64,000 nt of DNA, from positions 170,996,001 through 171,060,000 of the forward strand of contig OZ360223.1 in NCBI GenBank assembly GCA_977017645.1, written 5' to 3'. This DNA is from Torpedo marmorata. Its lineage: Eukaryota. The translations under genes were made by a program, and so were the position numbers. Under the pieces are notes generated by a model that saw nothing but the letters and a program-made list of their open reading frames with translations, was not told the origin of the DNA and ran no database searches. Shown in pieces: positions 2,291-61,624 of the stretch (position 1 is its first letter; each line of letters starts with the position of its first letter).

Positions 2291-4954
2291 GGTGATGATG
2301 GATTTCCGATAGAGTTTTATAAGAAGTTTAAAGATTTACTGATACCTATATATATGGAAGTATTGACTCAAATAAAGGAAACTCATTTATTACCGAAAAC
2401 ATTTTTAAATGCTGTTATTACAGTTATACCAAAGAAAGATAGAGATGTATTAAAAACTGAGTCATACAGACCTATATCACTGTTGAATGTAGATTATAAA
2501 TTAATGGCAAAAATTTTGACAAACAGATTAGCTGTTTTTACCGCTTTTAATACATTCAGATCAAGCAGGATTTATTAAAAATAGATATTTGAAGGATAAT
2601 ATAGCAAGATTAATAAGTTTAATTAATTTGCAAAAAAGGAAACAGGATTTACCGTTGGTGATAACATTAGATGCAGAAAAAGCATTTGATAGATTAGAAT
2701 GGAATTTTTTATTTAAGGTTTTAGAGAAATATGGGTTTGGAAATACTTTTATAAATTGGATTAAGACTATATATAAGGAACCTACAGCTAGAGTAATTAC
2801 AAATGGTCAGATATCATCTAAATTTTCCTTGATGCGATCAACAAGACAAGGATGTCCTTTATCACCTGCTTTATTTGTATTGGCAATAGAACCGCTGGCT
2901 GAAATGATTAGGAAAGATATCAATATAAATGGGATTAAAGTAGGTGCAGAAGAGCATAAAATTAGTTTATTTGCAGATGATGTATTAATATATATGACGA
3001 AATCTATTGGATCGCTTCAACAATTAGCTAAGATACTGAGGGAGTATGGTGAGATATCTGGTTATAAAATAAATTCAGATAAGAGTGAAATAATGGCTTT
3101 ATCTCAAGGAGATTATACTAAATGTAAAGAAGTTACAGGATTTAAATGGGCTAAAGAAGCAATTAAATAATTGGGAGTTAAAGTAGATACAAAATTGGAA
3201 AATTTATATAAATTAAATTATATACCTCTATTTCAGAAAATAAAGAAAGATTTGGAAAATTGGAAAGATTTACCTATAACCCTAATGGGAAGAGTGAATT
3301 GTATTAAAATGAATATCTTTCCAAGAGTTCAATACCTTTTTCAATCTATACCTTTTGGAATTCCTCAAAAAATTTTTAAAGATTTAAAAATCATTGTTAG
3401 AAAATTTTTATGGAAAGGAAAATTAGCAAGGGTAAGTATGGATAAATTAACTTGGGAATATGAGATGGGTGGATTACAACTCCCCAATTTTCAATATTAT
3501 TATAAGGCAGCACAATTAAAGTTTATTAATGAATTTTTTGATTTAACTAAATCTACTGCTTGGATTAATATAGAATTGAATAATATAGGGGAAAGATATA
3601 AGGAAGATATTATTTATAAATGGAATTCTAAATTATTATTAGTTAAAAAGAAAAAAACACCGATTATTAAACATTTACTGGAAATCTGGACTCAGTTAGA
3701 CAATGAGATAGGACGAAAAGGGTCATTATCTTTGAATATGCCATTGTATCAGAATTTATTGTTACCTTTTTCTATTGATAATCAATTTTTAAAACTATGG
3801 TTTCAAAAAGGAATTAAGAAGATTAAAGATTGTTTTGAGGCTGGAAGATTTGTTACATTCTCTAGGTTGAAAGAAAAATTTAGAATAATGGATAATACGA
3901 TTTTGGCTTATTATCAGGTTAAAGGATTTTTAGTTGAGAAATTGGGGAATCAATTAATAACTCCAAGACAGGATGGATTAGAATTATTAATTACTAATGG
4001 AAATGTTAACAAGTTTATATCACAAATGTATAGATTACTTCAGAGAAAGATGCCTAAGGTAGGATTGCATAAATCAAGATTAAATTGGGAATCAGATTTA
4101 AATATTAATATAGATGAAAAACATTGGAAAGAATTATGTAAATTGAGTATGACCAAAATTATTAATGTTAGATATAGATTAGTACAATATAATTTTTTTC
4201 ATCAATTATATTTAACACCTAAAAAATTAAAGAAATTTAATCCGGCACTATCAGATATGTGTTTTAGATGTAGGGATGAAATAGGTTCTTTTGTACACTG
4301 TACATGGTCATGTTTAAAAATTCAAAATTTTTGGTCTAAAGTTAAGGATTTTTTGGATAGAATTTTTAATATTACGGTTCCAATGGACCCTATGTTATTT
4401 TTATTTGGAGATATAAAAAAATTTAGTATTAGAAATAGATTGAATATGTATCAAATAGAATTTTTACGAATTGTTTTAGCGGTTTCAAAAAAATGTATCG
4501 CTATTACTTGGAAATCAGATTTAGATTTGAGTTTAGATAGATTACATGCAGAATTACGTTCTTGTATACCATTGGAAAAAATTACATATAATTTACATGA
4601 TAAATATCATTTCTTTTTGAAAATTTGGAGCCCATATATGAGAATTATGGGTATGAATTAATTCTCTAGAAGTTGGTACCGCTGGCAAAAATAACTTCCA
4701 ATATATAAATAGTATTAGCTTGTAATTTGTTTTCTCCTCACTTTAACTCTTTAATTCTTTATTATTCAACTCTTTTTTTTTCTTCTTTATAACTAACATT
4801 CTTTTTTTTTCTTCTTTTTTTTTAGAATAGCGCTGGGGGGGTTGGGGAGGGGAGGGGGGGAGGTAATATATCACATGTATTTTAAATGATATACTATTTT
4901 TGATTCATGTATTTTGTGATTTTAAAATTTAAATAAAATTATTTTAAAAAAAAA
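2291..4954 (+). mobile_element. L1-B: 5'-truncated L1-clade LINE nested in L1-A
   Basis: ORF2 from GDDGFP through RT (LFADD) to the C-terminus (4661), with a frameshift and a stop; G-rich 3'UTR, AATAAA, poly-A; TSD AAGAACT at 2284-2290 and 4955-4961. Confidence 0.93.
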
Positions 4955-5070: not shown

Positions 5071-5926
5071 TGTTACAAAATCAAACCAGCAACGACAGAA
5101 GACGTAATGCAAAAGGGGTAAAATTGAAATTATTATTTATTAAACACAAGTAAACATATAATTTCACAACAATTAACCCCACTATAAACGTCTATACTCT
5201 CTATTCTTATCTAAAAGGTGTATGTGTGTGTGTGTAAAGCCCAGACCATTACAGTCTGTGCCCAACCCTTATGTAAAAATGGAAAAACTTTCTCCAAAAA
5301 CCCCAGGTCAGTCATAAAAAAACAAGTCAGTCAAAAAAAAGATAAACAGTCAACAAATTCACTCTCTAAGTTCAGGCTTCAATTCAGCTCTGGGTCTGGT
5401 AGAAGTACTTCTGAATGAACGTTGGAGAGAGACAATGACTGTTATGCTTACAAATACTTGTTTTCTTCTCTGATGACGTCCCCTTCTTGTAGGTTCATAA
5501 GGATTGCAAGTTCCAGATCAGTATACCACTGATTTAGGCGTGTGCTTGAATCTCACAGCTAGTCTCGCTGATCTCACGCCTGTTCTCCACAGAAGTTGCT
5601 TTTCTCAGAATTTCTCTGAGACAGGAGGCCATGTGCTATTCTTCCAGTTTTCTCTGACTGCACAAGCCTGCATCTGGCTGTGTTCGGTAGCCTTTGCAAC
5701 TCACAACTGACTGTCTGCTTTGCAGAGATCTGCCCCTGCTTTTTGCAAAAGTGCAACAATGTATCTTTTCCACAGTCTGTCTCTCTCTGCTCTCTCTCTC
5801 TCTCTGGGTACACCAAGTCCTGGGGAAGTTAACTTTTTCAGTACCTGGCCCCAGTGTGTACTCCAAAAGACTTCATCCTTCCTGCTGACCGTCCGCAGTC
5901 CAAATGGTCAGTCATGGTCCATAACA
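5071..5926 (-). repeat. E1 3' LTR (856 bp)
   Basis: Direct repeat of 9987-10844, about 5 substitutions plus a TG-repeat indel by eye; PPT complement CCTCCCACCC adjacent at 5927-5936. Confidence 0.95.
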
Positions 5927-6058
5927 CCTCCCACCCACAAAGGAAATTTTGGTCTGCAAGAACAAAATTTAGGAAAGTAAGTGAGGTGTCAGAATATAAA
6001 CAAAATCTACAATGTTCATCCACAAATACAAAATATGAACTATTTTCATTGATAAAGT

Positions 6059-9000
6059 TTAACATCTAGAAAGACAATCAGCAATTACATTATCTCTCCC
6101 TTTTAAATGAGTGATTACCAAATTATATTCTTGCAAAATTAGACTCCAATTCAACAACTGTCGATTCTTATTTTTCATTTTACAAAGAAAAACCAATGGA
6201 TTATGGTCAGTATACACTATGAGTGGTTTTTGAGCTGTACATATATACACATCAAAATGTTGTAGAGCCAACACAAGAGCCAACAACTCTTTCTCTATAG
6301 TTGAATAATTTCTTTGATGATCATTGAACTTCTTTGAGAAGTAGGATACCGGATGTTCAATGTCCTCTTCGTTCTTCTTCTGTAACAGCACCGCACCCAC
6401 AGCTTCATCGCTCGCATCCACGGCTAAAGAAAACGACTGTTCTAAATTAGGTGACTTAAGCACAGGTTGGTGGCATAACATGGCTTTCAATTTGACAAAT
6501 GCTTCCTGACAACCTGTTGACCATACAAATTTCTCTTTCTTTCTAAGCAAATTTGTGAGAGGGAGCGCAAGATCAGCAAAGTTTTTACAGAACTTGCGGT
6601 AGTAGCCAATCATTCCCAGGAACCTCCTCAGAGTTTTCTTACCAGTTGGAACAGGGAACTCGGAAATAGCGACAACCTTTGCCTCTACTGGCGCCAAATT
6701 CCCCTGTCCTACTACATAACCCCGAGAATTAACAGTACCATTACCCTCTCTGAAACTGGTTTTATCTGTCTCCTCCTTACCCTGATCAATAACCAGTACC
6801 TCTGGTACATTTTCAGTCCCTTTGTGTGCCACCTGTTCAAAATATGGCTTAATCATATTCACATGACAGACCTGTGTGTGTCGTCTGCGATTAGGTGTTT
6901 CTATGACATAGGTAACATCATTAATTTTTGACTTAACTCTATAGGGTCCTGAAAATCTAGCCCTAAGAGGATTTGAATGGATGGGAAACAGAACTAATAC
7001 GTTCTCACCAGGTTTAAAAGTTCTCATCTTCGCCTTTCGATCATACCAAACCTTCATTTTCTGTTGAGTGGCCATTAAATTCTCCTTTGCCATCTCACAA
7101 GCCCTATGTAACCGATCCTTAAATTTGGAAACATAATCTAACAGATTTAAATGCACATCACGATGAATCCACTGTTCTTTTAATAATCTTAAAGGACCTC
7201 TCACCTCATGTCCGAAAACTAACTCAAATGGACTAAAACCAAGCGAATCTTGGACAGTCTCCCTCGCTGCAAATAACAACAAATGAACCCCCTCATCCCA
7301 ATCCTTTTCCTTCTCACAACAATAGGTTCTAATCATGTTTTTCAAAGTCGAATGGAACCTCTCCAAGGCCCCTTGACTTTCTGGATGGTACGCAGAGGAT
7401 ACAATCTGTTTAACTCCTAGTCCATCAACCACTTGTTGGAAAACGCCTGACATGAAATTACTGCCCTGATCTGATTGAATTTCCCTTGGCAAACCTACCA
7501 AGGTGAAAAACTTTACCATAGCCTTTACAATTGACTTTGCTTTTATGTTTCTCAGAGGAATGGCCTCTGGAAATCTGGTGGCTGCACACATAATTGTTAA
7601 CAAATATTCATTCCCCGCTTTGGTTTTGGGCAATGGGCCAACACAGTCCACAATTACTCTCGAGAAAGGCTCACTGAAAGCAGGGATAGGTTGCAAGGGT
7701 GCCACCGGGGGACCCTGATTAGGTTTACCCACTACCTGACAAGTGTGACAGGCCCGGCAAAAGCTTACAACCTCCCTTCTCAAACTGGGCCAATAAAACT
7801 GTTTCATTATCTTACTTATAGTTTTCTTCACCCCAAGATGACCACCTAAGGGTGTACTATGAGCCAAAGTTATTATTTCATCCCTATATACTTTAGGGAT
7901 TACAATCTGCTGCACTACTGCCCATTCTTCATTGGCAGGAACATCACGTGGTCTCCACTTTCTCATCAACACCCCATCTTTTTCATAATAACCTACTGGC
8001 ACCTTTTTAATCTCCTCTTCAGAGAGAACCTTATCCCTCACCTCAACAAGATCAGGATCGTCCTTTTGCCTTGCTATTAGCTCCTGTTGGGATAATGACA
8101 AATCTGTGCCTTTAGGTGTCTTATCAGTGGATGGGTGTAACATAGGAGATAGCTCAACCTTTTCCAGGTTTCCTTGATTATCAGTTTCTTTTTCTTTTAC
8201 CAAGTTATTTCCCACTGCCTTCTCTACAGTGACATTTTTCTTAGACATGGCCCTGGTTATGGCACATGCCGGATAAATATCAGAGTCTTTCTCTGACTTA
8301 TCAATGACTGGCTTAGTGGTCATTCGCACTGCAGGAACTACTTTACCCTTGGCCAAGTCATTGCCTAACAACAGTGAGACTCCTTCTACTGACAACTCTG
8401 ATCTCACTCCTATTATAACTGGTCCTTCCACCAAGTCTGAGTCCAATACTATTTTGTGCAAAGGAATGGACTCTACCTCACCACCAATTCCTTTAATTAA
8501 ATTTATGTCACCGGTGTCAGTAGCTTCACAAAATTCCAAGACACTATCTAACACAAGTGACTGAGCAGCTCCAGTATCTCTCAAGATTTTCACTGGCACT
8601 TGTTTTGATCCTGCATTAACTGAAACAAAACCATCAGTCACAAAAGGTTTAAATACATCTTTAACTTTGTCAGTAAATTTATCTCCTTCCTGGGTGTTAT
8701 GCATCTTCTCACTCTGAATACAAGCATTAGGTGTTGCATCCTTTTCTCTCTTCTTTTTCAACACTGGACAGCTTGCTATCATATGACCAACCTTCCTACA
8801 GTAGTGGCAAATGGGACCCGAATTGCTTTCCCGTTTCCACTTTCCTTCATCCCTTTCCTTAACACCACTTCCAAATTTACTTTCCACTTGCTTCTGATTA
8901 TCCACCGTGACATTTTGGAAAATTCTACCTGACGTCCACTTAGGCTTGTGGGTTAAAGCATATCCATCTGCCAACTTAGCTGAATCTCGCCAAGTTTTCA

Positions 9001-9854
9001 CCTCCTTTTCATCTAAGTATACCTTAATATCCTCAGGAACACACCTTTTTAACTCCTCGATTATTATCAATTCTCTCAATTGATTGTAATCATTGTTTAC
9101 TGCCTTAGATGTGCACCACCTGTCAAAACACACAACCTTTTCATAGGCAAACTCTGTATAAGATTGGGTTGCTGATCTTTTTAAATTTCTAAACTTCTGT
9201 CTATAAGCCTCTGGAACTAACTCATAAGCCTGGAGTATAGCCTTTTTCACCGTTTCATAATCAGCAGCTTGCTCTGTGGTAAGAGTAGAATAAGCTTGCT
9301 GAGCTTTTCCTTTTATTACACTTTGCAACATAAGAGACTATTGGTCTTGTGGCCATTTTAATTTCACAGCCACTTTCTCAAAATGTTGGAAGTACTTATC
9401 TATTTCTGCCTCCTCAAATGGAGGAACCAACCTAACTTCCCTACTAGCCAAAAACCCCTCAGCAGGATGACGAATTTGATCTTGGCGCTCTTCTTGTCTC
9501 CTCTCATTTTCCAACCTCATCTTTTCCAACTCATATTTCCTATTTTTCTCCTCGTTCTCATATCTCTTTTGTTCTCTGTCTATCTCCATGTCTAATCTCT
9601 TTCGTTCCAATTCTAATTTCTTTTGTTCCCTGTCTGCCTCCAATTCTAATTTCTTTTGTTCTCTGGCTGCCTCCAATTCCAATTTCTTTAATTCCAACTG
9701 TATGTTTTCAGAAGGTTTACCCAAACTCTGCCTTTTTCATAGATGGTTTTACAGAAGCAATGCCCAACTCTGTTGCTATAGCCACTAACTGTTCCTTTTT
9801 CGCCTTTTTTAAAGTATCAGGTTCAGGTGATTCCAAAAAATGTTCTACATCCAT
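6059..9854 (-). pseudogene. E1 gag-pol (SCAN-like capsid, CCHC, DTG protease, HHCC/DDE integrase, GPY/F, RT thumb, RNase H)
   Basis: 1090-aa open segment 6059-9331; ~70-bp frameshifting deletion near 9722 relative to E2; TGG>TAG at 9338-9340; no YxDD. Confidence 0.92.
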
Positions 9855-9959
9855 TGTTGCTGGTTTTTTGTTACACACACACTAGCTTTTAATTAGCTTT
9901 ACCAAAAGGAATGCCTTAAACCAAACTGGGATTCCTTCAATTACCAAGATGGATTTTGA

Positions 9960-9983
9960 TTCAAATCCCGCAACGAGCCCCCA
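9960..9983 (-). promoter_or_regulatory. E1 primer-binding site, tRNA-Pro type (variant)
   Basis: TGGGGGCTCGTTGCGGGATTTGAA, 3 nt from the LTR, versus the tRNA-Pro complement TGGGGGCTCGTCCGGGATTTGAA. Confidence 0.85.
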
Positions 9984-9986
9984 ATT

Positions 9987-10844
9987 TGTTACAAAATCAA
10001 ACCAGCAACGACAGAAGACGTAATGCAAAAGGGGTAAAATTGAAATTATTATTTATTAAACACAAGTAAACATATAATTTCACAACAATTAACCCCACTA
10101 TAAACGTCTATACTCTCTATTCTTATCTAAAAGGTGTATGTGTGTGTGTGTGTAAAGCCCAGACCATTACAGTCTGTGCCTAACCCTTATGTAAAAATGG
10201 AAAAACTTTCCCCAAAAACCCCAGGTCAGTCATAAAAAAACAAGTCAGTCAAAAAAAAGATAAACAGTCTACAAATTCACTCTCTAAGTTCAGGCTTCAA
10301 TTCAGCTCTGGGTCTAGTAGAAGTACTTCTGAATGAACGTTGGAGAGAGACAATGACTGTTATGCTTACAAATACTTGTTTTCTTCTCTGATGACGTCCC
10401 CTTCTTGTAGGTTCATAAGGATTGCAAGTTCCAGATCAGTATACTACTGATTTAGGCGTGTGCTTGAATCTCACAGCTAGTCTCGCTGATCTCACGCCTG
10501 TTCTCCACAGAAGTTGCTTTTCTCAGAATTTCTCTGAGACAGGAGGCCATGTGCTATTCTTCCAGTTTTCTCTGACTGCACAAGCCTGCATCTGGCTGTG
10601 TTCGGTAGCCTTTGCAACTCACAACTGACTGTCTGCTTTGCAGAGATCTGCCCCTGCTTTTTGCAAAAGTGCAACAATGTATCTTTTCCACAGTCTGTCT
10701 CTCTCTGCTCTCTCTCTCTCTCTGGGTACACCAAGTCCTGGGGAAGTTAACTTTTTCAGTACCTGGCCCCAGTGTGTACTCCAAAAGACTTCATCCTTCC
10801 TGCTGACCGTCCGCAGTCCAAATGGTCAGTCATGGTCCATAACA
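9987..10844 (-). repeat. E1 5' LTR (858 bp)
   Basis: TGTTA...TAACA termini; PBS adjacent. Confidence 0.95.
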
Positions 10845-13770
10845 GATGTTATTAGTTATAAACCTCAAACAATAAATGATTCTTTAAAAATTTTTTATTC
10901 TGATTTATATAAATCAGAATCTTTACAAGACGATAGTAGAATTGATGATCACCTATCGCAAATAAATTTACCAAGATTAAATACACAAGAGCGATTAGAA
11001 CTAAGTACACAGTTTACGCAGAGGGAAGTAAAGGATGCAATTAGCTCATTACAAAGTAATAAAGCGCCGGGAGGGGATGGTTTTCCACCAGAGTTTTCTA
11101 AAGAATTTAAGGAATTATTAATTCCTATTTTTATGGATATGTTACAGCAAGCTTCAGTGACCAACACACTTCCGGAATCTTTTTCCACTGCAATAATTAC
11201 AGTAATACCAAAAAAAGATAGAGACCCATTGAAACCCTCATCATATAGACCAATTTCATTATTGAACGCAGATTATAAGATTGTGGCAAAAATTTTGGCA
11301 AATAGGATAACAAAATTTTTGCCAAAATTAGTAAATATGGATCAAACAGGTTTTATAAAAAAAAGACAAGCAGCTGATAATGTGGCAAGGTTACTTAGTA
11401 TTATGCATTTAGCCCAAAAAAGGAAAATACCAAGTATAGCAGTGGCATTAGATGCAGAGAAAGCTTTTGACAGGTTGGAATGGGACTTTTTATTTAAAGT
11501 TTTGGAGAAATTTGGATTTGGGAAGACTTATATAGATTGGATTAAAGCATTATATAATGCTCCAAAAGCTAAAGTAGTGACCAATGGACAAATATCAACT
11601 TCGTTTTGTTTAACAAGATCTAGTCGGCAAGGGTGCCCATTGTCACCAGCTTTATTTGTATTAGCTATAGAACCGTTAGCTGAGGCTATTAGAAGTGATT
11701 TGGCAATTAAGGGATTTACAGTTGGTCAAGAGCAACATAAAATTAGTTTATTTGCGGATGATGTTTTAATATACTTGACAGAGCCTGAGACTTCTTTGCA
11801 AAGACTACATTTCAAGCTGGAGGAATATGGAAAAGTCTCTGGTTATAAGATAAATTGGGATAAAAGTGAAGTTATGCCTCTTACAGAGGGAGACTATACT
11901 GTATGTAAAAGAACTACTCAGTTTAAATGGCCACATAATGGAATAAAATATCTTGGGGTTCGGACAGATAATAAATTAAAAAATTTATATAAATGGAACT
12001 ATGTACCTTTACTTAACAAAATTAAGGAGGATTTAGAAAAGTGGATTAATTTACCAATTACACTGATAGGAAGAGTTAACTGTATCAAAATGAATATATT
12101 TCCAAGGATACAGTATTTGTATCAGACTATACCTATTTTATTACCACAGGTTTTCTTTCAGGATTTAAATAAACAAGTGCGAAAATTTTTATGGAAAGGT
12201 AAAATGTCAAGAGTTTCAATGGAACGTTTAACATGGAAATATGAATTGGGGGGTTTGCAACTCCCTAATTTTAAGAATTATTATCGAGTGGCACAAATGC
12301 GATTTGTTGCTTCTTTTTTTGAAACTGAAGAAAGACCTGCGTGGGTTGGAATAGAACTAGGAGAAATAGGAGAAAAGATACCACAAGAATTTATATACAA
12401 ATTGAATTCAAAACTGCTGATAGGGGTTAAAGAAACGCCGTTATTAAAACATTTGATTAATGCTTGGAATAAAGTTAGGGTTGAAAGGAAGTATATCACC
12501 CAAAATGCCTTTGATACAGAATAATCTTATACCATTTACAAAAGATAATCAATTTTTAAATACTTGGTCATTAAAAGGAATAAAGAAGATAGAAGATTGT
12601 TATGAAGGAAATCAAATGATGTCATTTATACAATTACAGAATAAATATGGAATACCTAATAATACTCTTTTTTGTTATTTTCAATTAAGAGGTTATTTAA
12701 GAGAAAAATTAGGTCCAGACTTCTTGTTACATGATTGTAGTGAGGTAGAAACTCTCATTAGGAAAGGAAATACTAAGAAATTTACTTCTATAGTGTATTC
12801 TTTGCTACAAAGGGGAGCTTTAAAACGAGGACTTCATAAATCTAGACAAAGATGGGAACAAGATCTCAATGTTATAATTGATGAAAAAAGGTGGTCGGAT
12901 CTATGTTTAGATAGTATGACTAATACTGTTAATGTAAGATATAGATTGGTACAATTAACTTTTTACATCAACTATATCTTACACCACAAAAATTGAACAA
13001 GATAAACTCTACGATATCAAATAGATGCTTTAGATGTGGTGAAGAAGAGGGAACCTTTTTACACTCAACGTGGTCATGTTCAAAAGTTAAAGGTTTTTGG
13101 ATAGAGTTAGGAAATCGGTTAAAACAAATTACAGGTGTTACATTTCCACAGAATCCTGACTTATTTTTATTGGGAAACGTGGAAGGAACTAGACCAAAAT
13201 TGAAGTTATCTACATGGCAATTGAAATTTGTAAAAATTGCATTAGCAGTAGCAAGGAAATGTATAGCAGTAACTTGGAAATCGGATACAGATTTAAGTAT
13301 GGATAGATGGAATTCAGAGATGCGGAGTTGTATTCCATTGGAAAGAATAACATATAATATGAGGAATAAATATGGGGTATTTTTGCAAATTTGGCGTCCA
13401 TTTATCCAATTATTAGGAATGAATATTTAAATGTGTTGCCCTACATCCTAGACCCTACTGACTCTCTTAAATTTAAATTTAAAGAACGAACATTATTGAA
13501 TATCTTGCATCGAGCCGTGGACCCGTACAGATATTTTTCTTCCTCTATCTTTCTTTTCTTATTTTTAGTAAGGGAAGGGAATAAGGGACGGGAAGGGTGG
13601 AGGGTGGGTTGTCTTAGTGAGGGTGGGTTTAGAGGGGGTTAGAATCACGGTAATACAAATTTGTATGTATTGAATTTATTAATGTTTATTATGTATCTTG
13701 CACTATTCTGTATTATTGTGAAAAATTTGAAAATTTAAAATAAAATATTTTAAAAAAATTGTGTGAAAGG

Positions 13771-18500: not shown

Positions 18501-18570
18501 GATGCTGCCGCAAAACACCGAATTTCATGACTTGTTCATGACAATAAATTCTGATTCTGATTCTGATTCT
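15517..18570 (+). mobile_element. Rex1/Babar LINE, near full length, decayed
   Basis: APE endonuclease (PSILLANVQSLENK, TETWL, VGDFN, SDH), RT ([19 protein letters not shown]), AATAAA plus (TTCTGA)n tail. Confidence 0.88.
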
Positions 18571-19887
18571 AAATGACTGTCGACCAGTAGCACTTACATC
18601 AACAATGATGAAGTGTTTTGAAAGGCTGGTGTTGAAGCAGATCAGCTCCTGCCTGAGCAGTGACATGGATACGTTCCAGTTTGTCTATCGTAGCAACAGG
18701 TCTACGGCGGATGCCATCTCACTGGCTCTACACAAAGCCCTGGAACACCTGGACAGTAAAGATTCATTAATCAGGATGCTCTTTATCGAATACAGTTCGG
18801 CATTTAACAACATCATCCCCTTAAAAATGATCAGCAAACTCCAAGACCTGGGCCTCAACACCCCACTGTGTAATTGGATCCTGGATTTCCTCACCTCCAG
18901 ACCACAAATAGTGAGGATTGGTAAGAACATCTCCTCCACAATCTCCATCAGTACCAGAGCACCACAGGGCTGTGTTCTTAGCCCCCTGCTCTACTCACCT
19001 TACACCTACGACTGTGTGGCTCGGTATGACAATAACACCATCTACAAAGTTGCTGCCGATACCACAGTAGTGGGTTGTATAAAGAAAGGTGATGAGTCAG
19101 CATACAGGATGGAGATTGAAAACTTGGCTGAATGGTGCACCAACAACAACCTTGCACTCAATGTCAGCAAAACTAAGGAGCTGATTGTTGACTTAAGGAA
19201 AGGAAAGCCAGAGGTATACAATCCAGTGATCATTGGGGAATCAGAGGTGGAGAGGGTGAGCAAATTTTAAGTTCTTGGGAGTCACTATCTCAGAGGATCT
19301 TTCCTGGACCCAACACACTAATGGCATTGTGGCGAAAGCACATCAGTGCCTTTACTTCCTCAGGAGTTTGCGGAGGTTTGATATGACACCAGAAACCCTC
19401 ACAAATTTCTACAGATGTGTGGTGGAAAGTGTGCTGACCAGCTGCATATAGGTCTGGTATGGGGATACCAATACCCCTGAGCGTAAAGCCCTCCAAAAGG
19501 TATTGGACACAGCCCAGGACATCACAGGCAAAACCCTCCCCACTATCGAGAACATCTACAGGGAGCGCTGCTGACATCAGGAAAGAGGTATAGACTTGCA
19601 CCACCAGGTTCAGGAACAGCTGCTACCCCTCCACCATCAGACTCCTCAAACAGGGACTCATTTAAGGACTGATTTTTTAAAAACTTTTCTCTGTATTGCG
19701 CAGTCTATTTGTTTACATTCGTTACCGGTTTACCGTTCCTTATTTGTTTACATGTGTACGCTGTGTACAGTTGTTTTTGCACTACCAATAAGTGTTAATT
19801 CTGTCTCGCCCGTAGAAAAAAGAATCTCAGGGTTGTATGTGATGTCATGTATGTACTCTGATAATAAATCTGAAATCTAAATCTGAA
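18571..19887 (+). mobile_element. Second Rex1/Babar LINE, 5'-truncated
   Basis: [10 protein letters not shown]...[11 protein letters not shown]; AATAAA plus (TCTGAAA)-like tail. Confidence 0.85.
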
Positions 19888-28646: not shown

Positions 28647-29541
28647 TGTTATGGACCATGACTGACCATTTGGACTGCGGACGGTTAGCAGGAAGGATGA
28701 ATTCTTTTGGAGTATACACTGGGGCCAGGTACTGAAAGAGTTAACTTCCCCAGCTACTTGGTGTACCCAGACAAGATACATTGTTGCACTTTTGGTGTAC
28801 CCAGACAGAGAGAGACAGAGACAGCCTGGACAAGATACATTTGTTTCACTTCTGCAAAAAGCAGGGGCAGATCTCTGCAAAGCAGACACAGTTGTGAGTT
28901 GCAAGGCTACAGAACACAGCCAGATCCAGGTTTGTGTGCAGTCAGAGAAAATCTGGCAAAATAGCACATGGCCTCCTGTCTCAGAGAGAAATTCTGAGGA
29001 AAAAGCAACTTCTGTGGAGAACAGGCGTGAGATCAGCGAGACTAGCTGTGAGATTCAAGCATACGCCTAAATCAGTGGTATACTGATCTGGAACTTGCAA
29101 TCCTTATGAACCTACAAGAAGGGGACGTCATCAGAGAAGAAAACAAGTATTTGTAAGCATAACAGTCATTGTCTCTCTCCAACGTTCATTCAGAAGTACT
29201 TCTACCAGACCCAGAGCTGAATTGAAGCCTGAACTTAGAGAGTGAATCTTGTGGACTGAATTATTCTTTTGTTTTTTTTGACTGACTTGTTTTTTTATGA
29301 CTGACCTGGGGTTTTTGGGGAAAGTTTTTCCATTTTTACATAAGGGTTGGGCACAGACTGTAATGGTCTGGGCTTTACACACACACACATACACCTTTTA
29401 GATAAGAATAGAGTTTATAGACGTTTATAGTGGGGTTAATTGTTGTGAAATTATATGTTTACTTGTGTTTAATAAATAATAATTTCAATTTTACCCCTTT
29501 TGCATTGCGTCTTCTGTCGTTGCTGGTTTGATTTTGTAACA
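28647..29541 (+). repeat. E2 5' LTR (895 bp)
   Basis: About 2 substitutions and one T-run indel versus the 3' LTR by eye; AATAAA at 29471. Confidence 0.95.
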
Positions 29542-29673
29542 AATTGGGGGCTCGTTGCGGGATTTGAATCAAAATCTATCTTGGTAATTGAAGGATTCCC
29601 AGTTTGGTTTAAGGCATTCCTTTTGGTAAAGCTAATTAAAAGCTAGTGTGTGTGTAACAAAAAACCAGCAACA

Positions 29674-32600
29674 ATGGATATAGAACATTTTTTAGAATCA
29701 CCTGAATCTGATACTTTAAAAAAGGCGAAAAAGGAACAGTTAGTGGCTATAGCAACAGAGTTGGGCATTGCTTCTGTAAAACCATCTATGAAAAAGGCAG
29801 ATATTGGGAGAAAAATTGTCAAGTACTATATAAAAGAAAAAAAGTTTGAGGAGAGCATGTTAGAGCAGTTTCCCAAGGGTAAACCTTCTGAAAACATACA
29901 ATTGGAAATAAAGAAATTGGAATTGGAACAAAATAAATTGGAATTGGAACAAAAGAAATTGGAGGCAGCTATGGAACAGAAGAGATTAGACTTAGAGAGC
30001 GATGAGAAAAATAGGAGATATGAGCTGGAAAAGATGAGGTTGGAAAATGAGAAGAGACAAGAAGAGCGCCAAGATCAAATTCGTCATCCTGCTGAGGGGT
30101 TTTTGGCTAGTAGAGAAGTTAGGTTGGTTCCTCCATTTGAGGAGGCAGAAATAGATAAGTACTTCCAACATTTTGAGAAAGTGGCTGTGAAATTAAAATG
30201 GCCACAAGACCAATGGTCTCTTATGTTGCAAAGTGTAATAAAAGGAAAAGCTCAGCAAGCTTATTCTACTCTCACCACAGAGCAAGCTACTGATTATGAA
30301 ACAGTGAAAAAGGCTATACTCCAAGCTTATGAGTTAGTTCCAGAGGCTGAAAGACAGAAGTTTAGAAATCTAAAAAGATCAGCAACCCAATCTTATACAG
30401 AGTTTGCCTATGAAAAAGTCGTGTGTTTTGACAGATGGTGCACATCTAAGGAAGTAAACAATGATTACAATCAATTGAGAGAATTGATAATAATCGAGGA
30501 GATAAAAAGGTGTGTTCCTGAGGATATTAAGGTATACTTAGATGAAAAGGAGGTGAAAACTTGGCGAGATTCAGCTAAGTTGGCAGATGGATATGCTTTA
30601 ACCCACAAGCCTAAGTGGACGTCAGGTAGAATTTTCCAAAAAGTCACGGTGGATGATCAGAAGCAAGTGGAAAGTAAATTTGGAAGTGGTGTTAAGGAAA
30701 GGGATGAAGGAAAGTGGAAACGGGAAAGCAATTCGGGTCCCATTTGCCACCACTGTAGAAAGGCTGGTCATATGCGAGCAAGCTGTCCAGTGTTGAAAAA
30801 GAAGAGAGAAAAGGATGCAACACCTAATGCTTGTATTCAGAGTGAGAAGATGCATAACACCCAGGAAGGAGATAAATTTACTGACAAAGTTAAAGATGTA
30901 TTTAAACCTTTTGTGACTGATGGTTTTGTTTCAGTTAAGGCAAGATCAAAACAAGTTCCAGTGAAAATCTTGCAAGATACTGGAGCTGCTCAGTCACTTG
31001 TGTTAGATAGTGTCTTGGAATTTTGTGAAGCTACTGACACCGGTGACATAAATTTAATAAAAGGAATTGGTGGTGAGGTAGAGTCCATTCCTTTGCACAA
31101 AATAGTATTGGACTCAGACTTGGTGGAAGGACCAGTTATAATAGGAGTGAGATCAGAGTGGCCCGTAGAAGGAGTCTCACTGTTGTTAGGCAATGACTTG
31201 GCCAAGGGTAAAGTAGTTCCTGCAGTGCGAATGACCACTAAGCCAGTTATTGATAAGTCAGAGAAAGACTCTGATATTTATCCGGCATGTGCCATAACCA
31301 GGGCCATGTCTAAGAAAAATGTCACTGTAGAGAAGGCAGTGGAAAATAACTTGGTAAAAGAAAAAGACACTGATAATCAAGAAAACCTGGAAAAGGTTGA
31401 GCAATCTCCTATGTTACACCCATCCACTGATAAGACACCTAAAGGCACAGATTTGTCACTATCCCGACAGGAGTTAATAGCAAGGCAAAAGGACGATCCT
31501 GATCTTGCTGAGGTGAGGGATAAGGTTCTCTCTGAAGAGGAGATTAAAAAGGTGCCAGTAGGGTATTATGAAAAAGATGGGGTGTTGATGAGAAAGTGGA
31601 GACCACGTGATGTTCCTGCCAATGAAGAATGGGCAGTAGTGCAGCAGGTTGTGATCCCTAAAGTATATAGGGATGAAATAATAACTTTGGCTCATAGTAC
31701 ACCCTGAGGTGGTCACCTTGGGGTGAAGAAAACTATAAGGAAGATAATGAAACAATTTTATTGGCCCAGTTTGAGAAGGGAGGTTGTAAGCTTTTGCCGG
31801 GCCTGTCACACTTGTCAAGTGGTGGGTAAACCTAATCAGGGTCCCCCAGTGGCACCCTTGCAACCTATCCCTGCTTTCAGTGAGCCTTTCTCGAGAGTAA
31901 TTGTGGATTGTGTTGGCCCCTTGCCCAAAACCAAGGCGGGGAATGAGTATTTGTTAACAATTATGTGTGCAGCCACCAGATTTCCAGAGGCCATTCCTCT
32001 GAGAAACATAAAAGCAAAGTCAATTGTAAAGGCTATGGTAAAGTTTTTCACCTTGGTAGGTTTGCCAAGGGAAATTCAATCAGATCAGGGCAGTAATTTC
32101 ATGTCAGGCGTTTTCCAACAAGTGGTTGATGGACTAGGAGTTAAACAGATTGTATCCTCTGCGTACCATCCAGAAAGTCAAGGGGCCTTGGAGAGGTTCC
32201 ATTCGACTTTGAAAACCATGATTAGAACCTATTGTTGTGAGAAGGAAAAGGATTGGGATGAGGGGGTTCATTTGTTGTTATTTGCAGCGAGGGAGTCTGT
32301 CTAAGACTCACTCGGTTTTAGTCCATTCGAGTTAGTTTTCGGACATGAGGTGAGAGGTCCTTTAAGATTATTAAAAGAACAGTGGATTAATCGTGATGTG
32401 CATTTAAATTTGTTAGATTATGTTTCCCAAATTTAAGGATCGATTGCATAGGGCTTGTGAGATGGCAAAGGAGAATTTAAAGGCCACTCAACGGAGAATG
32501 AAGGTTTGGTATGATCGAAAGGCGAAGATGAGAAATTTTAAACCTGGTGAGAACGTATTAGTTCTGTTTCCCATCCATTCAAATCCTCTTAGGGCTAGAT

Positions 32601-33496
32601 TTTCAGGACCCTATAGAGTTAAGTCAAAAATTAATGATGTCACCTATGTCATAGAAACACCTAATCGCAGACGAGACACACAGGTCTGTCATGTGAATAT
32701 GATTAAGCCGTATATTGAACAGGTGCCACACAAAGGGACTGAAAATGTACCAGAGGTATTGGTTATTGACAGGGGTAAGGAGGAGACAGATAAAACCAGT
32801 TTCAGAGAGGGTCATGGAACTGTTAATTCTCTGAGTTATGTTGTAGGACAGGTGAAGTTGGCGCCAGTAGAGGCAAAGGTTGTCGATATTTCCGAGTTCC
32901 CTGTTCCAAATGGTAAGAAAACTCTGAGGAGGTTCCTGGGAATGATTGGCTACTACCGCAAGTTCTGTAAAAACTTTGCTGATCTTGCGCTCCCTCTCAC
33001 AAATTTGCTTAGAAAGAAAGAGAAATTTGTATGGTCAACAGGTTGTCAGGAAGCATTTGTCAAATTGAAAGCCATGTTATGCCACCAACCTGTGCTTAAG
33101 TCACCTAATTTAGAACAGTCGTTTTCTTTAGCCGTGGATGCCAGCGATGAAGCTGTGGGTGCGGTGCTGTTACAGAAGAAGAACGAAGAGGACATTGAAC
33201 ATCCGGTATCCTACTTCTCAAAGAAGTTCAATGATCATCAAAGGAATTATTCATCTATAGAGAAAGAGTTGTTGGCTCTTGTGTTGGCTCTACAACATTT
33301 TGATGTGTATATCTGTACAGCTCAAAAACCACTCATAGTGTATACTGACCATAATCCATTGGTTTTTCTTTGTAAAATGAAAAATAAGAATCGACGGTTG
33401 TTGAATTGGAGTCTAATTTTGCAAGAATATAATTTGGTAATCACTCATATAAAAGGGAGAGATAATGTAATTGCTGATTGTCTTTCTAGATGTTAA
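29674..33496 (+). pseudogene. E2 gag-pol without RT core
   Basis: ATG at 29674; stops at 31705 and 32302; +1 frameshift near 32427; same domains as E1. Confidence 0.92.
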
Positions 33497-33628
33497 ACTT
33501 TATCAATGAAAATAGTTCATATTTTGTATTTGTGGATAAACATTGTAGATTTTGTTTATATTCTGACACCTCACTTACTTTCCTAAATTTTTTTCTTGCA
33601 GACCAAAATTTCCTTTGTGGGTGGGAGG

Positions 33629-34522
33629 TGTTATGGACCATGATTGACCATTTGGACTGCGGACGGTTAGCAGGAAGGATGAATTCTTTTGGAGTATACA
33701 CTGGGGCCAGGTACTGAAAGAGTTAACTTCCCCAGCTACTTGGTGTACCCAGACAAGATACATTGTTGCACTTTTGGTGTACCCAGACAGAGAGAGACAG
33801 AGACAGCCTGGACAAGATACATTTGTTTCACTTCTGCAAAAAGCAGGGGCAGATCTCTGCAAAGCAGACACAGTTGTGAGTTGCAAGGCTACAGAACACA
33901 GCCAGATCCAGGTTTGTGTGCAGTCAGAGAAAATCTGGCAAAATAGCACATGGCCTCCTGTCTCAGAGAGAAATTCTGAGGAAAAAGCAACTTCTGTGGA
34001 GAACAGGCGTGAGATCAGCGAGACTAGCTGTGAGATTCAAGCATACGCCTAAATCAGTGGTATACTGATCTGGAACTTGCAATCCTTATGAACCTACAAG
34101 AAGGGGACGTCATCAGAGAAGAAAACAAGTATTTGTAAGCATAACAGTCATTGTCTCTCTCCAACGTTCATTCAGAAGTACTTCTACCAGACCCAGAGCT
34201 GAATTGAAGCCTGAACTTAGAGAGTGAATCTTGTGGACTGAATTATTCTTTTGTTTTTTTGACTGACTTGTTTTTTTATGACTGACCTGGGGTTTTTGGG
34301 GAAAGTTTTTCCATTTTTACATAAGGGTTGGGCACAGACTGTAATAGTCTGGGCTTTACACACACACACATACACCTTTTAGATAAGAATAGAGTTTATA
34401 GACGTTTATAGTGGGGTTAATTGTTGTGAAATTATATGTTTACTTGTGTTTAATAAATAATAATTTCAATTTTACCCCTTTTGCATTGCGTCTTCTGTCG
34501 TTGCTGGTTTGATTTTGTAACA
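33629..34522 (+). repeat. E2 3' LTR (894 bp)
   Basis: TG..CA termini; AATAAA at 34452. Confidence 0.95.
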
Positions 34523-55923: not shown

Positions 55924-58900
55924 TGTTACAAATTCAAATCAGCAACGACAGAAGAGCAATGCAAAAGGGGCAAAATTGAAATTTATATTTATTAACGACA
56001 ATTAAACATAATTTCACAACAATCAACCCCACTATAAACATCTATAAACACTTCTTATCTAAAGATTGTGTGTGTAAAGCCCAGACCATTAAAGTCTGTG
56101 CCCAACCCTCAAGAAAAAAAAATAACAAACCTTCCCCAAAACCCCCAGGTCAGTCATAAAAATAAGTCAGTCCCAAAAATACAATCCACAAAAATCACTC
56201 TCTATGTTCAGGGTCAAAATTCAGTTCTGTGTGCTGGCACGAAGCACTTCTTAATGAACGTTGGAGAGAGAGAGAGAGACAATGACTGTTTAAGCTTACG
56301 AATGCTTGGTCTGCTATATCCTTCCGATGACTTTCCTTTTGTAGGTGCACAAGGGTTGCTGTTCAAATCCACTGATGAAGGCGTGTACGTGGATCTCACA
56401 CCTGTTAACCACGAAAGTAGCTTTAATCAGTCTTTTACTGATAAAGGAGGCCATGTGCTCTTCTCTACAGCCTTTCTAGCTGGAATGCACAAGCCTCTGG
56501 TTTTGCTGTTGTTGTTCCAGCCTTTTGCAACTCCAAACTGAATGCTTTTTGCAGAGGTTTGCACCTGCTTTTGCAAAAGTGCAACAAAGTATCTTTTCCA
56601 CAGCCTCTCTCTCTCTCTATGTGTCTCTCTCTCTGAGCACAGCCAGCCCTGGGCAAGTTAACTCTTTCAGTACCTGGTCCCAGTGTGTATTCAAAAGACT
56701 TCATCTTTCCTGTTGACCGTCCACAGTCCAAATGGTCAGTCATGGTCCATAACACCTCCCACCCACAAAGAAAATTTTGGTCTGCAAGAACAAAATTTTG
56801 GAAATTAATTGAAGTGTCACAATATAAACAAAACCCACAATGTTCATCCACAAACACAAAAATATGATTATTTTCATTTATAAAGTTTAGGATCCAGAAA
56901 GACAATCACCGATTACATTATCTTTCCCTTTTATATGTGTTATCATTAAATCATATTCTTGCAAAATTAGACTCCAATTTAACAACCGTCGATTCTTATT
57001 TTTCATTTTACGAAGAAAAACCAATGGATTATGGTCAGTATACACTATGAGTGGTTTTTGAGCTGTACAGATATACACATCAAAGTGTTGCAGAGCCAAC
57101 ACAAGAGCTAACAACTCTTTTTCTATGGTTGAATAATTCCTTTGATGATCATTGAACTTCTTCGAGAAGTAGGATACCGGATGGTCAATGTCCTCTTCGT
57201 TCTTCCTCTGTAACAGCACCGGACCCACAGCTTCATCGCTGGCATCCACGGCTAAAGAAAATGGTTTTTCTAAATCAGGTGACTTAAGCACAGGTTGGTG
57301 GCATAAAATGGCTTTCAATTTGACAAATGCTTCCTGACAACCTGTCGACCATACAAATTTTTCTCCCTTTCTAAGCAAATTTGTGAGAGGGAGCGCAAGT
57401 TCTGCAAAATTTTTACAGAGCTTGCAGTAGTAGCCAATCATTCCCAGGAACCTCCTGAGAGTTTTCTTACCAGTTGGAACAGGGAACTCGGAAATAGTCA
57501 CAACCATGGCCTCCACTGGCGCCAACTGCCCCTGTCCTACTACATAACCAAGATAACTAACAGTCCCATGACCCTCTCTGAAACTGCTTTTATCTGTCTC
57601 CTCCTTACCCTGGTCGATAACCAGCACCTCTGGTAAATGTTCAGTCTCTTTGTGAGGCACCTGTTCAAAATATGGCTTAATCATATTCACATGACAGACC
57701 TGAGTGTCTCGTTTGCGATTAGGTGTTTCTATGACATAGGTGACATCATTAATTTTAGACTTAACTCTATAGGGTCCTGAAAATCTAGCCCTAAGAGGAT
57801 TTGAATGTGTGGGAAACAGAACTAATATGTTCTCACCAGGTTTAAGTTCTCATCTCATCATACAAAACCTTCATTCTCTGTTGAGTGGCCTTTAAAGTCT
57901 CCTTTGCATCTCACAAGCTTTATGCAACCGATCCTTAAATTTGGAAACATAATCCAACAAATTTAAATGCACATCACTATTAATCCACTGTTCTTTTAAT
58001 AACCTTAAATGACCTCTCACCTCATGTCCGAAAACTAACTCGAATGGACTATAACCAAGTGATTCTTGGACAGACTCCCTCGCTGCAAATAACAGCAAAT
58101 GAACCTCCTCATCCCAATCCTTTTCCTTATCACAACAATAAGTTCTAATCATGTTTTTCAAAGTTGAATGGAACCTCTCCAAGGCCCCTTGAATTTCTGT
58201 TTGGTACGCAGAGGATACAATCTGTTTAATTCCCAGTCTATCAACCACTTGTTGGAATACGCCTGACATGAAATTATTACCCTGATCTGATTGAATTTCC
58301 CTTGTCAAAACCTACCAAGGTGAAAAACTTTACCATAGCCTTTACAATTGCCTTTGCTTTAATGTTTCTCAGAGGAATGGCCTCTCGAAATCTGGTGGCT
58401 GCACACATAATTGTTAACAAATACTCATTCCCCTCTTTGGTTTTGGGCAATGGGCCAACACAGTTCACAATCACTCTCGAGAAAGGCTCACTGAAAGCAG
58501 GGATAGGTTGCAAGGGTGCCACCAGGGGACCCTGATTAGTGTGACAGGCCCGACAAAAGCTTACAACCTCCCTTCTCAAACTGGGCCAATAAAATTGTTT
58601 CATTATCTTCTGTATAGTTTTCTTCACCCCAAAGTGACCATGACCATGTGCTATGAGCCAAAGTTATTATTTTGTCTCCATATACTTTAGGGATCACAAC
58701 CTGCTGCACTGGCAGGAACATCACATGGTCTCCACTTTCTCATCAACACCCCATCTTTTTCATAACCCACTGGCACCTTCTTAATCTCCTCTTCAGAGAG
58801 AACCTTATCCCTCACCTCAGCAAGATCAGGATCCTCCTTTTGCCTTGCTATTAGCTCCTGTTGGGAGAGTGACAAATCTGTGCCTTTAGGTGTCTTATTA

Positions 58901-61624
58901 GTGTATGGGTCTAACACAAGAGATTGCTCAACCTTTTCCAGGTGTTTTTAATTATCACCATCTTTTTCTTTCACCAATTTATTTTCCACTGCCTTCTCTA
59001 AAGTGACATTTTTCTTAGACATGGCCCTGGTTATGGCACAAGCCGGATAAATATCAGAGTCCTTCTCTGACTTATCAATGACTGGCTTAGTGGACATTCA
59101 ACTACTTTACCCTCAGCCAAGTCATTGTCTAGCAACAGTGAGACTCCTTCTACTGGCAACTCTGATTTCACTCCTATTATAACAGGTCCTTCCACCAAGG
59201 CTGAGTTCAACACTATTTTGTGCAAAGGAATGGACTCAACATCACCCCCAATTCCTTTAATTAAATTCATTTTACCGGTGTCAGTGGCTTCACAAAATTC
59301 CAAGACACTATCCAACACAAGTGACTGAGCAGCTCCCGTATCTCGCAAGATTTTCACTAGAACTTGCTTTGAAACTTGCCTTAACTGAAACAAAACCATC
59401 AGTTACATACCTAACTTTGTCAGTAAATTTGTCTCCTACCTGGGTGTTATGCCTCTTCTCACTCTGAATACAAGCATTAGGTGTTGCATCCTTTTCTCTC
59501 TTCTTTTTCAACACTGGACAGCTTGCTAGCATATGACCAGCCTTCCTACAGCAGTGGCAAATGGGACCCGAAGGGTTTTCCCTTTTCCACTTTCCTTCAT
59601 TTCTTTCCTTAACACCACTTTCATATTTACTTTCCACTTGCTTGGGATTATCCACAGTGACCTTTTGGAAAATTCTGCCTGACGTCCACTTTGGCTTGTG
59701 GGTTAAAGCATATTCATCTGCTAACTTAGCTGAATTTTGCCAAGTTTTCACCTCCTTTTCATCTAAGTATGCCTTAATATTCTCAGGAACACACTTTTTT
59801 ATCTCCTCAATTAATATCAATTCTCTCAATTGATTGTAATCATTGTTTACCACCTTAGATATGCACCACCGGTCAAAACACACAACCTTTTCATAGGCAA
59901 ACTCTGTGTAAGATTGGGTTGCTGATCTTTTTAAATTACTAAACTTCTGTCTATAAACCTCTGGAACTAACTCATAAGCCTGGAGTATAGCCTTTTTCAC
60001 CGTTTCATAATCAGCAGCTTGCTCTGTGGTAAGAGTAGAATAAGCTTGCTGAGCTTTTCCTTTAATTACACTTTGTAACATAAGAGACCATTGGTCTTGT
60101 GGCCATTTTAATTTCACAGTCACCTTTTCAAAATGCTGGAAGTACTTATCTATTTCTGCCTCCTCAAATGGAGGAACCAACCTAACTTCTCTACTGACCA
60201 AAAACCTCTCAACAAGACCACGAATTTGATCTTGGTGCTCTTCTTGTCTCCTCTCATTTTCCAACTTAATCTTTTCGATCTTAATCTTTTCCAGCTCATA
60301 TTGCCTAATGTTCTCCTCTCTCTCTCAGTCTAATCTCTTTTTTTCTCTGGCTGCCTCCAAGTCTAATCTCTTTTGATCCAATTCCAATTTCTTTAGTTCC
60401 AATTCCCTGTCTACTCTCCTTTGTTCCAACTGTATGTTCTCAGAAGGTTTACCCTTGGGAAACTGCTCTAACATGCTCTCCTCAAACTTTTTGCCTTTTA
60501 TATAGTATTTGGAAATTTTTCTCCCAATCTCTGCCTTTTTCATTGATGGTTTTACAGAAGCAATGCCCAACTCTGTTGCTACAGCCACTAACTGTTCCTT
60601 TTTAGCCTTTTTTAAAGTATCAGGTTCGGATGATTCCAAAAAAAATTCTATCTCCATTGTTGCTGGTTTATGTTACACACACACTAGCTTTTAATTAGCT
60701 TTACAAAAGGAATGTTTTAAACCAGACTGGGATTCCTTCAATTATCAAGCTGGCGCTTGATTCAAACTCGGACGAGCCCTCAATTTGTTACAAATTGAAA
60801 CCAGCAATGACAGAAGACGCAATGCAAAAGGGGCAAAATTGAAATTTATATTTATTAATGACAATTAAACATATAATTTCACTACAATCAACCCGACTAT
60901 AAACGTCTATAAATACTTCTTATCTAAAGAGTGTGTGTGTGTAAAGCCCAGACCATTGCAAGTGTGCCCAACCCTCAAGAAAAAAAAATAGAAAACCTTC
61001 CCCAAAACCCCAGGTCAGTCATAAAAATAAGTCAGTCCCAAAAGTGCAGTCCACAAAAATCACTCTCTATGTTCAGGGTCAAAATTCAGCTCTGTGTGCT
61101 GGCATGAAGAACTTCTTAATGAACGTTGGAGAGAGAGAGACAATGACTGTTTAAGCTTACGAATGCTTGGTCTGCTATATCCTTCCGATGACTTTCCTTT
61201 TGTAGGTGCACGAGGGTTGCTGTTCAAATCCACTGATGAAGGCGTGTACGTGGATCTCACACCTGTTATCCATAAAAGTTGCTTTAAATCAGTCTTTGAC
61301 TGATAAAGGAGGCCATGTGCTCTTCTCCACAGCCTTTCTAGCTGGAATGCACAAGCCTCTGGTTTTGCTGTTGTTGCTGCAGCCTTTTGCAACTCCAATC
61401 TGAATGCTTTTTGCAGAGGTTTGCACCTGCTTTTGCAAAAGTGCAACAAAGTATCTTTTCCACAGCCTGTCTCTCTCTCTCTATGTCTCTCTCTCTCTCT
61501 CTCTGAGCACAGCCAGCCTTGGGCAATTTAACTCTTTCAGTACCTGGTCCCAGTGTGTACTCAAAAGACTTCATCCTTCCTGCTGACGGTCTGCAGTCCA
61601 AATGGTTTGTCATGGTCCATAACA
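55924..61624 (-). mobile_element. E3: older Gmr1-like LTR retrotransposon lacking RT core
   Basis: LTRs 55924-56754 and 60786-61624, visibly more diverged; imperfect TSD CTGA/CTGG; PBS 60761-60782; PPT at 56755-56764. Confidence 0.94.
56887..60657 (-). pseudogene. E3 gag-pol without RT core, multiple frameshifts
   Basis: Fragments colinear with E1/E2; integrase first Asp changed to Asn (VIVNCVGP); same IN-thumb junction. Confidence 0.9.

Follow-up and report, generated by a model that had tools for sequence, protein, structure and literature searches.

A window of 64,000 nucleotides from Torpedo marmorata (assembly GCA_977017645.1, contig OZ360223.1, positions 170,996,001 to 171,060,000 of the forward strand) holds three related long terminal repeat (LTR) retrotransposons, called here E1, E2 and E3. 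We propose that all three are copies of a Gmr1-like element carrying one shared in-frame deletion of the reverse transcriptase (RT) core, that this deletion likely arose by a single template jump at a short microhomology, and that the deleted copies are likely copied by the RT of complete family members in mixed particles. We give this reading a probability of about 0.8.

E1, E2 and E3 lack the RT core and share one junction

A preliminary description, made from the letters of the window, had proposed that these elements lost the RT core while keeping Gag, protease (PR), integrase (IN) and RNase H. Pfam analysis of the 1092-aa frame of E1 identified SCAN, zinc knuckle, integrase (H2C2, rve, p58_C/SH3) and RNase H domains, and no RVT_1 was found in this frame at E<=0.1. 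The [YF]xDD motif is absent from every sense frame of E1, E2 and E3. Alignment with seven full-length relatives placed the missing domains: the gap opens just behind the integrase tail and closes at the last RT motif. The C-terminal part kept after the gap corresponds to residues 260–475 of Ty3 RT (match to 4OL8, E 3.8e-36, the best solved match). The identical junction is present in all three elements, so that both the loss and its presence in E1, E2 and E3 were borne out.

The LTR pairs differ at 5 of 856 positions in E1, 2 of 894 in E2 and 38–39 of 824 in E3, in agreement with the earlier estimate of more than 99% identity for the first two and a greater age for the third. Each element had also been credited with its own target-site duplication (TSD). 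This holds for E1 (GATG/GATG) and E2 (GACC/GACC), which have exact 4-bp duplications; the flanks of E3 (CTGA/CTGG) match at three of four positions only. E1 and E2 each split the second open reading frame (ORF2) of a long interspersed nuclear element (LINE), and the LINE reading frame resumes across the element flanks.

None of the three elements is itself intact. The long frame of E1 contains the domains described but is only part of the ORF, since gag, further upstream, is interrupted by a frameshifting deletion and by a premature stop. In E2 integrase contains a stop and there is a frameshift, and the frame of E3 is broken at several places. The exact junction flank of E3 has only two matches in the genome and looks near-private.

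A Gmr1-like family

The domain order is Gag(SCAN)-PR-IN followed by RT/RNase H, and in complete copies IN is followed by RVT_1. The IN-RT order is also found in homologues, and all 120 listed homologues carry RVT_1, the best being a Pristis pectinata (sawfish) protein (76% over the aligned part), an indication of a ray-like host. Judged by domain order, as obtained from Pfam and from alignment to relatives, and by RT/RNase H sequence, E1–E3 are Gmr1-like Ty3/gypsy LTR elements, as the preliminary description had it. The available text of a recent study describes Gmr1-like elements as having a SCAN-type capsid, then PR, IN and RT/RNase H, and as abundant in fishes (10.1101/2025.03.03.638093). 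The E1 family has the same order but, unlike other Gmr1-like elements, has lost the polymerase core in about three quarters of its copies by inheritance of a single in-frame deletion. The main text of a preprint on shark and ray genome size, as far as available, has no mention of Gmr1 (10.1101/2025.06.08.657570).

All hallmarks of LTR retrotransposons are present: TG...CA LTRs, a primer-binding site (PBS), a polypurine tract and TSDs. With automatic boundaries, an exact 4-bp TSD was obtained for 70 of 101 LTR pairs (44/60 deleted copies and 26/41 complete copies). No tRNA gene was found in the 64-kb window.

Abundance of the deletion in the genome

The deletion removes 771 bp and keeps the frame; its ends lie at two Gly-His codon pairs that repeat each other imperfectly, and 2 bp could be assigned to either end. 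The lost region comprises the RT fingers and palm, including YIDD. Splicing was considered as the origin of the gap and rejected: the skipped part starts with AC and ends with CT, not GT-AG. Upstream of the junction a hydrophobic stretch that follows integrase, and may be a protease site, is retained; from this we infer that a free IN and a thumb-RNase H piece may be released from the deleted polyprotein.

Copies with and without RT were counted genome-wide using exact patterns of unequal degeneracy, so that the counts are lower bounds. There are at least 17,361 exact junction matches (16,334 with a derived flank and 1,027 with the parental-type flank) and at least 4,852 exact matches to the complete end; reversed-pattern controls for the junction search gave 0 matches, which speaks against chance. 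Junction-bearing copies are thus abundant, not rare. The resulting deleted/complete ratio of 3.6 compares with 3.3 in a sample of 60 copies (see below). Assuming that the matches represent full-length copies, at least about 100 Mb of the 6.2-Gb genome (1.6%) consists of the deleted form, which RT-based surveys of transposable elements would miss or misclassify.

The 771-bp joint was also found, alongside contigs covering RT, in two of four other public runs (X2 and X7), whose organism codes differ, although this is not proof of other species. A protein search with the junction region returned nothing at E<=0.001 among 13 candidates of 714–2,274 aa, which is no evidence of absence. Other internal deletions in copies with LTR pairs and TSDs (L115, L132 and L177) were each seen in one sampled copy.

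Complete copies of the same family

The genome contains 17,449 exact matches to a family-specific 33-mer that lies immediately downstream of the junction. We sampled 60 of the first 61 listed places, all in the first 9.2 Mb of contig C1. The junction was present in 46 of them and an intact RT end in 14, 13 of which contained the RT core by tblastn. Most RT-bearing copies are 91–97% identical to E1 over the coding region and have LTRs in common with it; by these measures the RT-bearing form belongs to the same family as the deleted one. PBS and LTR ends are also common to both forms, and their ages overlap. The relative with the same LTRs for which the preliminary description had suggested a search is therefore present in the same genome.

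Complete copies have a single ORF holding YIDD. Among the 150 best RT matches, 18 sit in open frames of at least 1,500 codons. An LTR pair was found in 17 of 20 long-frame RT-bearing copies, with an LTR divergence (K) of 0–0.016. The polymerase that the deleted form had been supposed to borrow thus has a source in RT-bearing family members, some of them young and with whole open frames.

RT-bearing copies retrieved with a sawfish RT query were rejected as parent: they are about 75% identical to E1, have other LTRs and represent sister families, and the 150 best matches to this query include no whole open frame. These older RT-bearing Gmr1-like families (L031–L080) share the PBS motif of the E1 family and have LTRs unrelated to its own. 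At L044 and L065, sister-family copies contain or adjoin LTRs of the E1 family.

Linkage between the deletion and the rest of the element

Linkage was analysed in 120 copies (56 deleted and 64 complete), a parental-flank set being added later. Partial loci (L002–L030) were left out of the linkage and tree analyses, and tandem neighbours (L110, L124) and a locus where no anchor was found (L152) were left out of the counts. At +10 bp the r2 with the deletion is 1.0; it is 0.71 at +13, 0.55 at -24 and, beyond about 70 bp, near zero, with a mean of at most 0.02 in every 300-bp bin except the two at the junction. Variants common to both classes number 246, compared with 60 and 20 confined to one class. 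On an integrase tree of 140 rows, deleted and complete labels change 35 times, compared with 43.9 in shuffles.

Individual copies give the same picture. One deleted and one complete copy are identical over 1,200 integrase columns. This deleted/complete pair, in which each copy has an identical LTR pair, differs at 1/1,230 sites in IN, 2/624 in thumb-RNase H and 2/862 in the LTR, and at 11/149 around the junction. E1 itself differs less from a complete copy (1.8%) than from E2 (2.6%) or E3 (7.3%). The loss of linkage within about 70 bp, together with the interleaved integrase tree, argues that the deletion is an allele in one recombining pool, and it behaves as such in these data rather than as a separate family. 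On this point the preliminary description, which had seen a family of its own, has to be corrected: LTRs, PBS and nearly all polymorphisms are common with the RT-bearing copies, with which the deleted ones recombine. A lineage distinct from its partner outside the missing part, as in Quinta or Sabrina, is not what is found here.

Old copies are old in every segment (Spearman 0.83–0.88, n = 93). Since segment age follows LTR age, mixing most likely took place during replication and not by conversion after insertion. Template switching between co-packaged RNAs is established for retroviruses.

Age and origin of the deletion

Ages are given as LTR K, not as years. Copies with the parental-type flank are all old: seven of 20 could be dated, with a median K of 0.055 (range 0.043–0.066). 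The derived junction haplotypes have median K values of 0.052 (n = 3), 0.021 (n = 17), 0.017 (n = 14) and, for the youngest, 0.0023 (n = 21). As these haplotypes succeed one another in LTR-age order, the deletion likely arose once and has been copied ever since. The LTR divergence of deleted copies spans 0.066 down to 0, which fits the earlier proposal of an old, in-frame deletion that was repeatedly transposed and has long persisted.

Two other origins have to be weighed. The same deletion could recur from complete elements at the microhomology, the deleted copies being dead-end products; the imperfect repeat flanking it, the 1,027 copies with a parental-type flank and the interleaving on the integrase tree would all suit such a history. 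It is nevertheless largely refuted, and in our view very improbable: the first derived base beside the junction is present in 16,334 of the 17,361 junction matches and in none of 64 complete copies, the parental-flank copies that could be dated (7/7) are all old, and derived states accumulate in age order. It is scarcely credible, too, that the copies stem from segmental or tandem duplication, assembly artefact or host gene conversion in place of transposition. Some head-to-tail arrays do have a common LTR, but most deleted copies with LTR pairs have their own exact TSD (the 44 of 60 given above), copies are spread over many contigs, the joint recurs in two other public runs and segment age tracks LTR age. 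Segmental duplication, against which the preliminary description had warned, is refuted as the main route.

Arrays with a common LTR were seen for the deleted form at L109/L110 and L123/L124 on contig C1, and RT-bearing runs at about 5.8-kb spacing on contigs C47 and C60 are apparently arrays of the complete form.

Selection on the deleted copies

Variants common to both classes show an omega of 0.15–0.25 in capsid, PR, IN and RNase H and of 0.42 in the thumb, whereas private variants are neutral (1.16 and 1.40, own site count). From the oldest to the youngest deleted copies, pN/pS in the core domains is 0.14–0.37. The dN/dS near 1 on PR, IN and RNase H that would speak against maintained function was not seen; values in the core domains are about 0.2, a signal common with the parent. 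Domain dN/dS of the oldest deleted copies is 0.20 when they are compared with young deleted copies and 0.23 with young complete ones. The 16 codons linked to the junction have a pN/pS of 1.08 on the deleted lineage and no change on the complete lineage. Positive selection on the decaying RT motif was considered and rejected, its rate being not above the synonymous yardstick (p 0.20).

The core domains are free of stops and frameshifts in 10 of 21 full-length copies of the youngest haplotype, and no stop is common to members among 54 young copies. Catalytic residues of IN and RNase H are kept in 112–121 of 114–122 deleted copies, and those of PR in 84 of 85. Variants present in at least three deleted and no complete copies comprise 36 nonsynonymous (N) and 24 synonymous (S) changes, an omega of 0.51 in a weak test, against 1.16 for private ones. 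Among young copies, deleted-only variants (14 N/7 S) compared with singletons (170/39) gave p 0.15.

A 7-bp frameshifting deletion in RNase H (codon 1171, L121 frame) has 1,007 exact matches and occurs in 12 of 66 older deleted copies. It was considered as a deleted-only marker on the strength of the first nine deleted carriers (two with an 11-bp gap; no clean complete carrier) and rejected. Among 30 position-sampled carriers (L203–L232; 5 of the 30 already in earlier samples), 21 are deleted, 6 complete and 3 unclassifiable, two of the 27 classed copies being assigned by eye; this equals the genome ratio (p 1.0). The lesion lies between short direct repeats, and its carriers lean to old alleles and have no private variant in common. 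It may be a recurrent hotspot, and we do not take it as proof that RNase H is dispensable.

Low dN/dS and open frames are equally expected from exchange with a selected parent and so cannot be credited to the deleted copies' own use of their proteins. Whether the deleted polyprotein contributes stands at about even odds on these sequences, and two accounts of its role compete. In one, to which we give slightly less than an even chance, the deleted polyprotein is translated and selected, supplying Gag, protease and integrase or favouring packaging of its own RNA in cis like mouse IAP 1-Delta-1, as the accessible text of two studies describes it (PMC6466679, PMC7411935). This account is compatible with trans-complementation by complete copies and differs only in whether the deleted copies' own proteins matter. 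The deletion spares the reading frame and has done so in every haplotype of the series, although an in-frame deletion has a prior of 1 in 3 and the tightly linked zone has too few changes for a stop to be expected. The intact core domains of the youngest copies, the lack of a common stop and the near-complete retention of catalytic residues all agree with it, but recombination with the parent predicts the same intact frames. The omega of 0.51 points the same way; on the other side stand the non-significant test on young deleted-only variants (p 0.15) and the RNase H frameshift, with its 1,007 matches and its presence in 12 of 66 older deleted copies.

The other account, which we rate as nearly an even bet, makes the deleted RNA a mere passenger that needs only LTRs, PBS, polypurine tract and packaging signal, its coding sequence staying intact only by refreshing from complete copies. 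Free recombination beyond about 70 bp speaks for it, as do the equal dN/dS values against young deleted and young complete copies and the neutral evolution of the sole zone locked to the deletion. That zone, however, is the orphaned RT motif, which would be useless under either account. Inherited lesions common to young copies are rare, and other deletions such as those of L115 and L132 were not found shared, whereas the in-frame 771-bp one dominates.

Proposed mechanism

Under the trans-complementation that we favour, a template jump at a short microhomology would have created the deletion once. The deleted RNA would retain every cis signal; it would be copied and integrated, and would recombine like any allele of the family, with complete copies supplying RT in trans inside mixed particles. 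With Gag and Pol in the same ORF, more RT would be produced than needed, so that complete copies, though a minority, could be sufficient suppliers. Deleted and complete RNAs would be co-packaged, template switching in reverse transcription mixing all but the junction, and Gag, PR, IN and RNase H on deleted copies would be intact at least partly through renewal from the parent. As in a non-autonomous partner, the replication enzyme is gone (no RVT_1, no YxDD), PBS, LTR ends and promoter are common, and both forms were active concurrently.

Several points weigh against this proposal. The data behind it are genome sequence, and most full-length samples come from contig C1. The integrase tree is poorly resolved: 89 of 135 branches are open, and the starred branches force only three label changes. 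Dating relies on LTR pairs, which only some copies yielded (for the oldest haplotype, 7 of 20). K is below 0.0085 in none of 24 dated position-sampled complete copies, though it is in several deleted ones, and young complete copies turned up only by selecting long open frames. The RT-bearing sister families, about 75% identical and with the same PBS motif and other LTRs, could also supply RT.

A stable division of labour may also be envisaged, although we consider it unlikely: a single RT-null allele would have kept the majority through the family's whole visible history and would supply capsid, protease, integrase and perhaps a free thumb-RNase H, the complete minority providing polymerase as a public good. 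If so, the Gag-to-RT ratio of a single-ORF element would be set by allele frequency and not by frameshifting or splicing. Ty3 RT uses different subunits for polymerase and RNase H, which motivates, but does not support, the idea of a free RNase H.

Comparison with known systems

The closest analogue is mouse IAP 1-Delta-1, for which the accessible text of the same two studies reports that an internal deletion keeps one open frame and yields a gag-pol fusion, that this fusion acts in cis and depends on full-length copies for proteins in trans, and that the deleted form outperforms full-length copies in new insertions (PMC6466679, PMC7411935). The E1 family, unlike IAP 1-Delta-1, has lost nothing but the RT core and retains Gag, PR and IN in full. 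The cis role of the fusion is a result obtained for IAP; a comparable role in the E1 family is hypothetical.

In plants, according to the available portions of the sources, RLG_Quinta, RLG_Sabrina_SA and TR-GAG keep Gag with or without PR and have neither RT nor IN, and BARE-2 lacks Gag (PMC11302176, PMC9744471, 10.64898/2026.03.01.708851). These pairs (RLG_Quinta/Cereba, RLG_Sabrina_SA/Wilma, TR-GAG, BARE-2) resemble the present case in their common PBS and LTR ends, overlapping ages and some retained coding capacity. As far as those texts describe them, the plant partners are distinct families, whereas the E1 family keeps IN, thumb and RNase H and both forms share one gene pool. TR-GAG, TRIM and LARD elements are defined by the absence of IN, RT or RNase H coding; here IN and RNase H are present with catalytic residues. 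A sugar beet study, in its accessible part, reports 15 families with partly decayed pol remnants, and its supplements may hold a similar layout. In yeast, Ty1 proteins are reported to package RNA in trans and to mobilise defective elements as efficiently as competent ones, which counts in favour of the mechanism proposed here; Ty1 is however copia-type, and the available text describes no dominant fixed deletion allele (PMC3945221). No deletion allele restricted to the polymerase core was found described in the literature searched, although subscription papers, Repbase, Dfam, GyDB and preprint supplements, all outside the search, may hold one.

The family, with its thousands of datable copies, is a natural long-term record of how an allele that cheats or helps has fared in a vertebrate LTR retrotransposon. 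Its junction is a fixed marker for template-switch recombination and for how cis and trans action are balanced, two quantities that are difficult to measure in vertebrate germlines. Should the deleted protein be in use, this would be a novel means by which single-ORF elements adjust capsid to polymerase.

Other features of the window

Table 1. Positions of E1, its parts and the two related elements in the window
Feature	Position	Strand	Evidence
E1, RT-deleted Gmr1-like LTR element, youngest junction haplotype, inside LINE ORF2	5071..10844	-	TSD GATG at both ends; LINE frame continuing across flanks
E1 5' LTR (TG...CA)	9987..10844	-	LTR pair comparison
Primer-binding-site region directly after E1 5' LTR	9965..9986	-	motif common to RT-bearing copies and sister families
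gag, 5' part (start codon at 9854), interrupted in E1 by frameshifting deletion and premature stop	9338..9854	-	
Gag capsid C-terminal (SCAN) domain and CCHC knuckle	8765..9214	-	Pfam PF02023 residues 42-131; PF00098/PF21890 residues 176-192
Aspartic protease, DTG motif at about 8578, boundaries approximate	8230..8650	-	motif scan; alignment to relatives
Integrase: H2C2, DDE core, SH3-like C-terminal domain; upstream of RT remnant	6842..7900	-	Pfam PF17921, PF00665, PF22938, PF24626
E1 deletion junction, where 257 codons (771 bp) covering the N-terminus, fingers and palm of RT are gone	6735..6736	-	
Last RT motif, decaying, followed by thumb, connection and RNase H (acidic residues present)	6062..6734	-	
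Polypurine tract	5927..5945	-	motif scan
E1 3' LTR	5071..5926	-	LTR pair comparison
E2, RT-deleted copy, junction about 32819-32820, TSD GACC, inside LINE ORF2	28647..34522	+	
E3, older RT-deleted copy, junction 57563-57564, LTR K about 0.05, frame broken repeatedly	55924..61624	-	

Gag codons about 75–110 (window about 9480–9700) form a Glu/Lys/Arg-rich repeat region whose length differs widely between copies, for the most part in steps that keep the frame. Remains of LINE ORF2, broken and of several types, crowd the window (2532–4661, 10845–13430, 16852–19270, 21344–24329, 27168–28646, 34523–35366 and 38884–39882), and the five LINE frames scanned gave matches to RVT_1 or endonuclease families. 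A dispersed repeat is present in three copies (25143–26030, 37223–37871 and 44521–45212) with 61–93% identity, and is probably the 3' part of another LINE or a short interspersed nuclear element.

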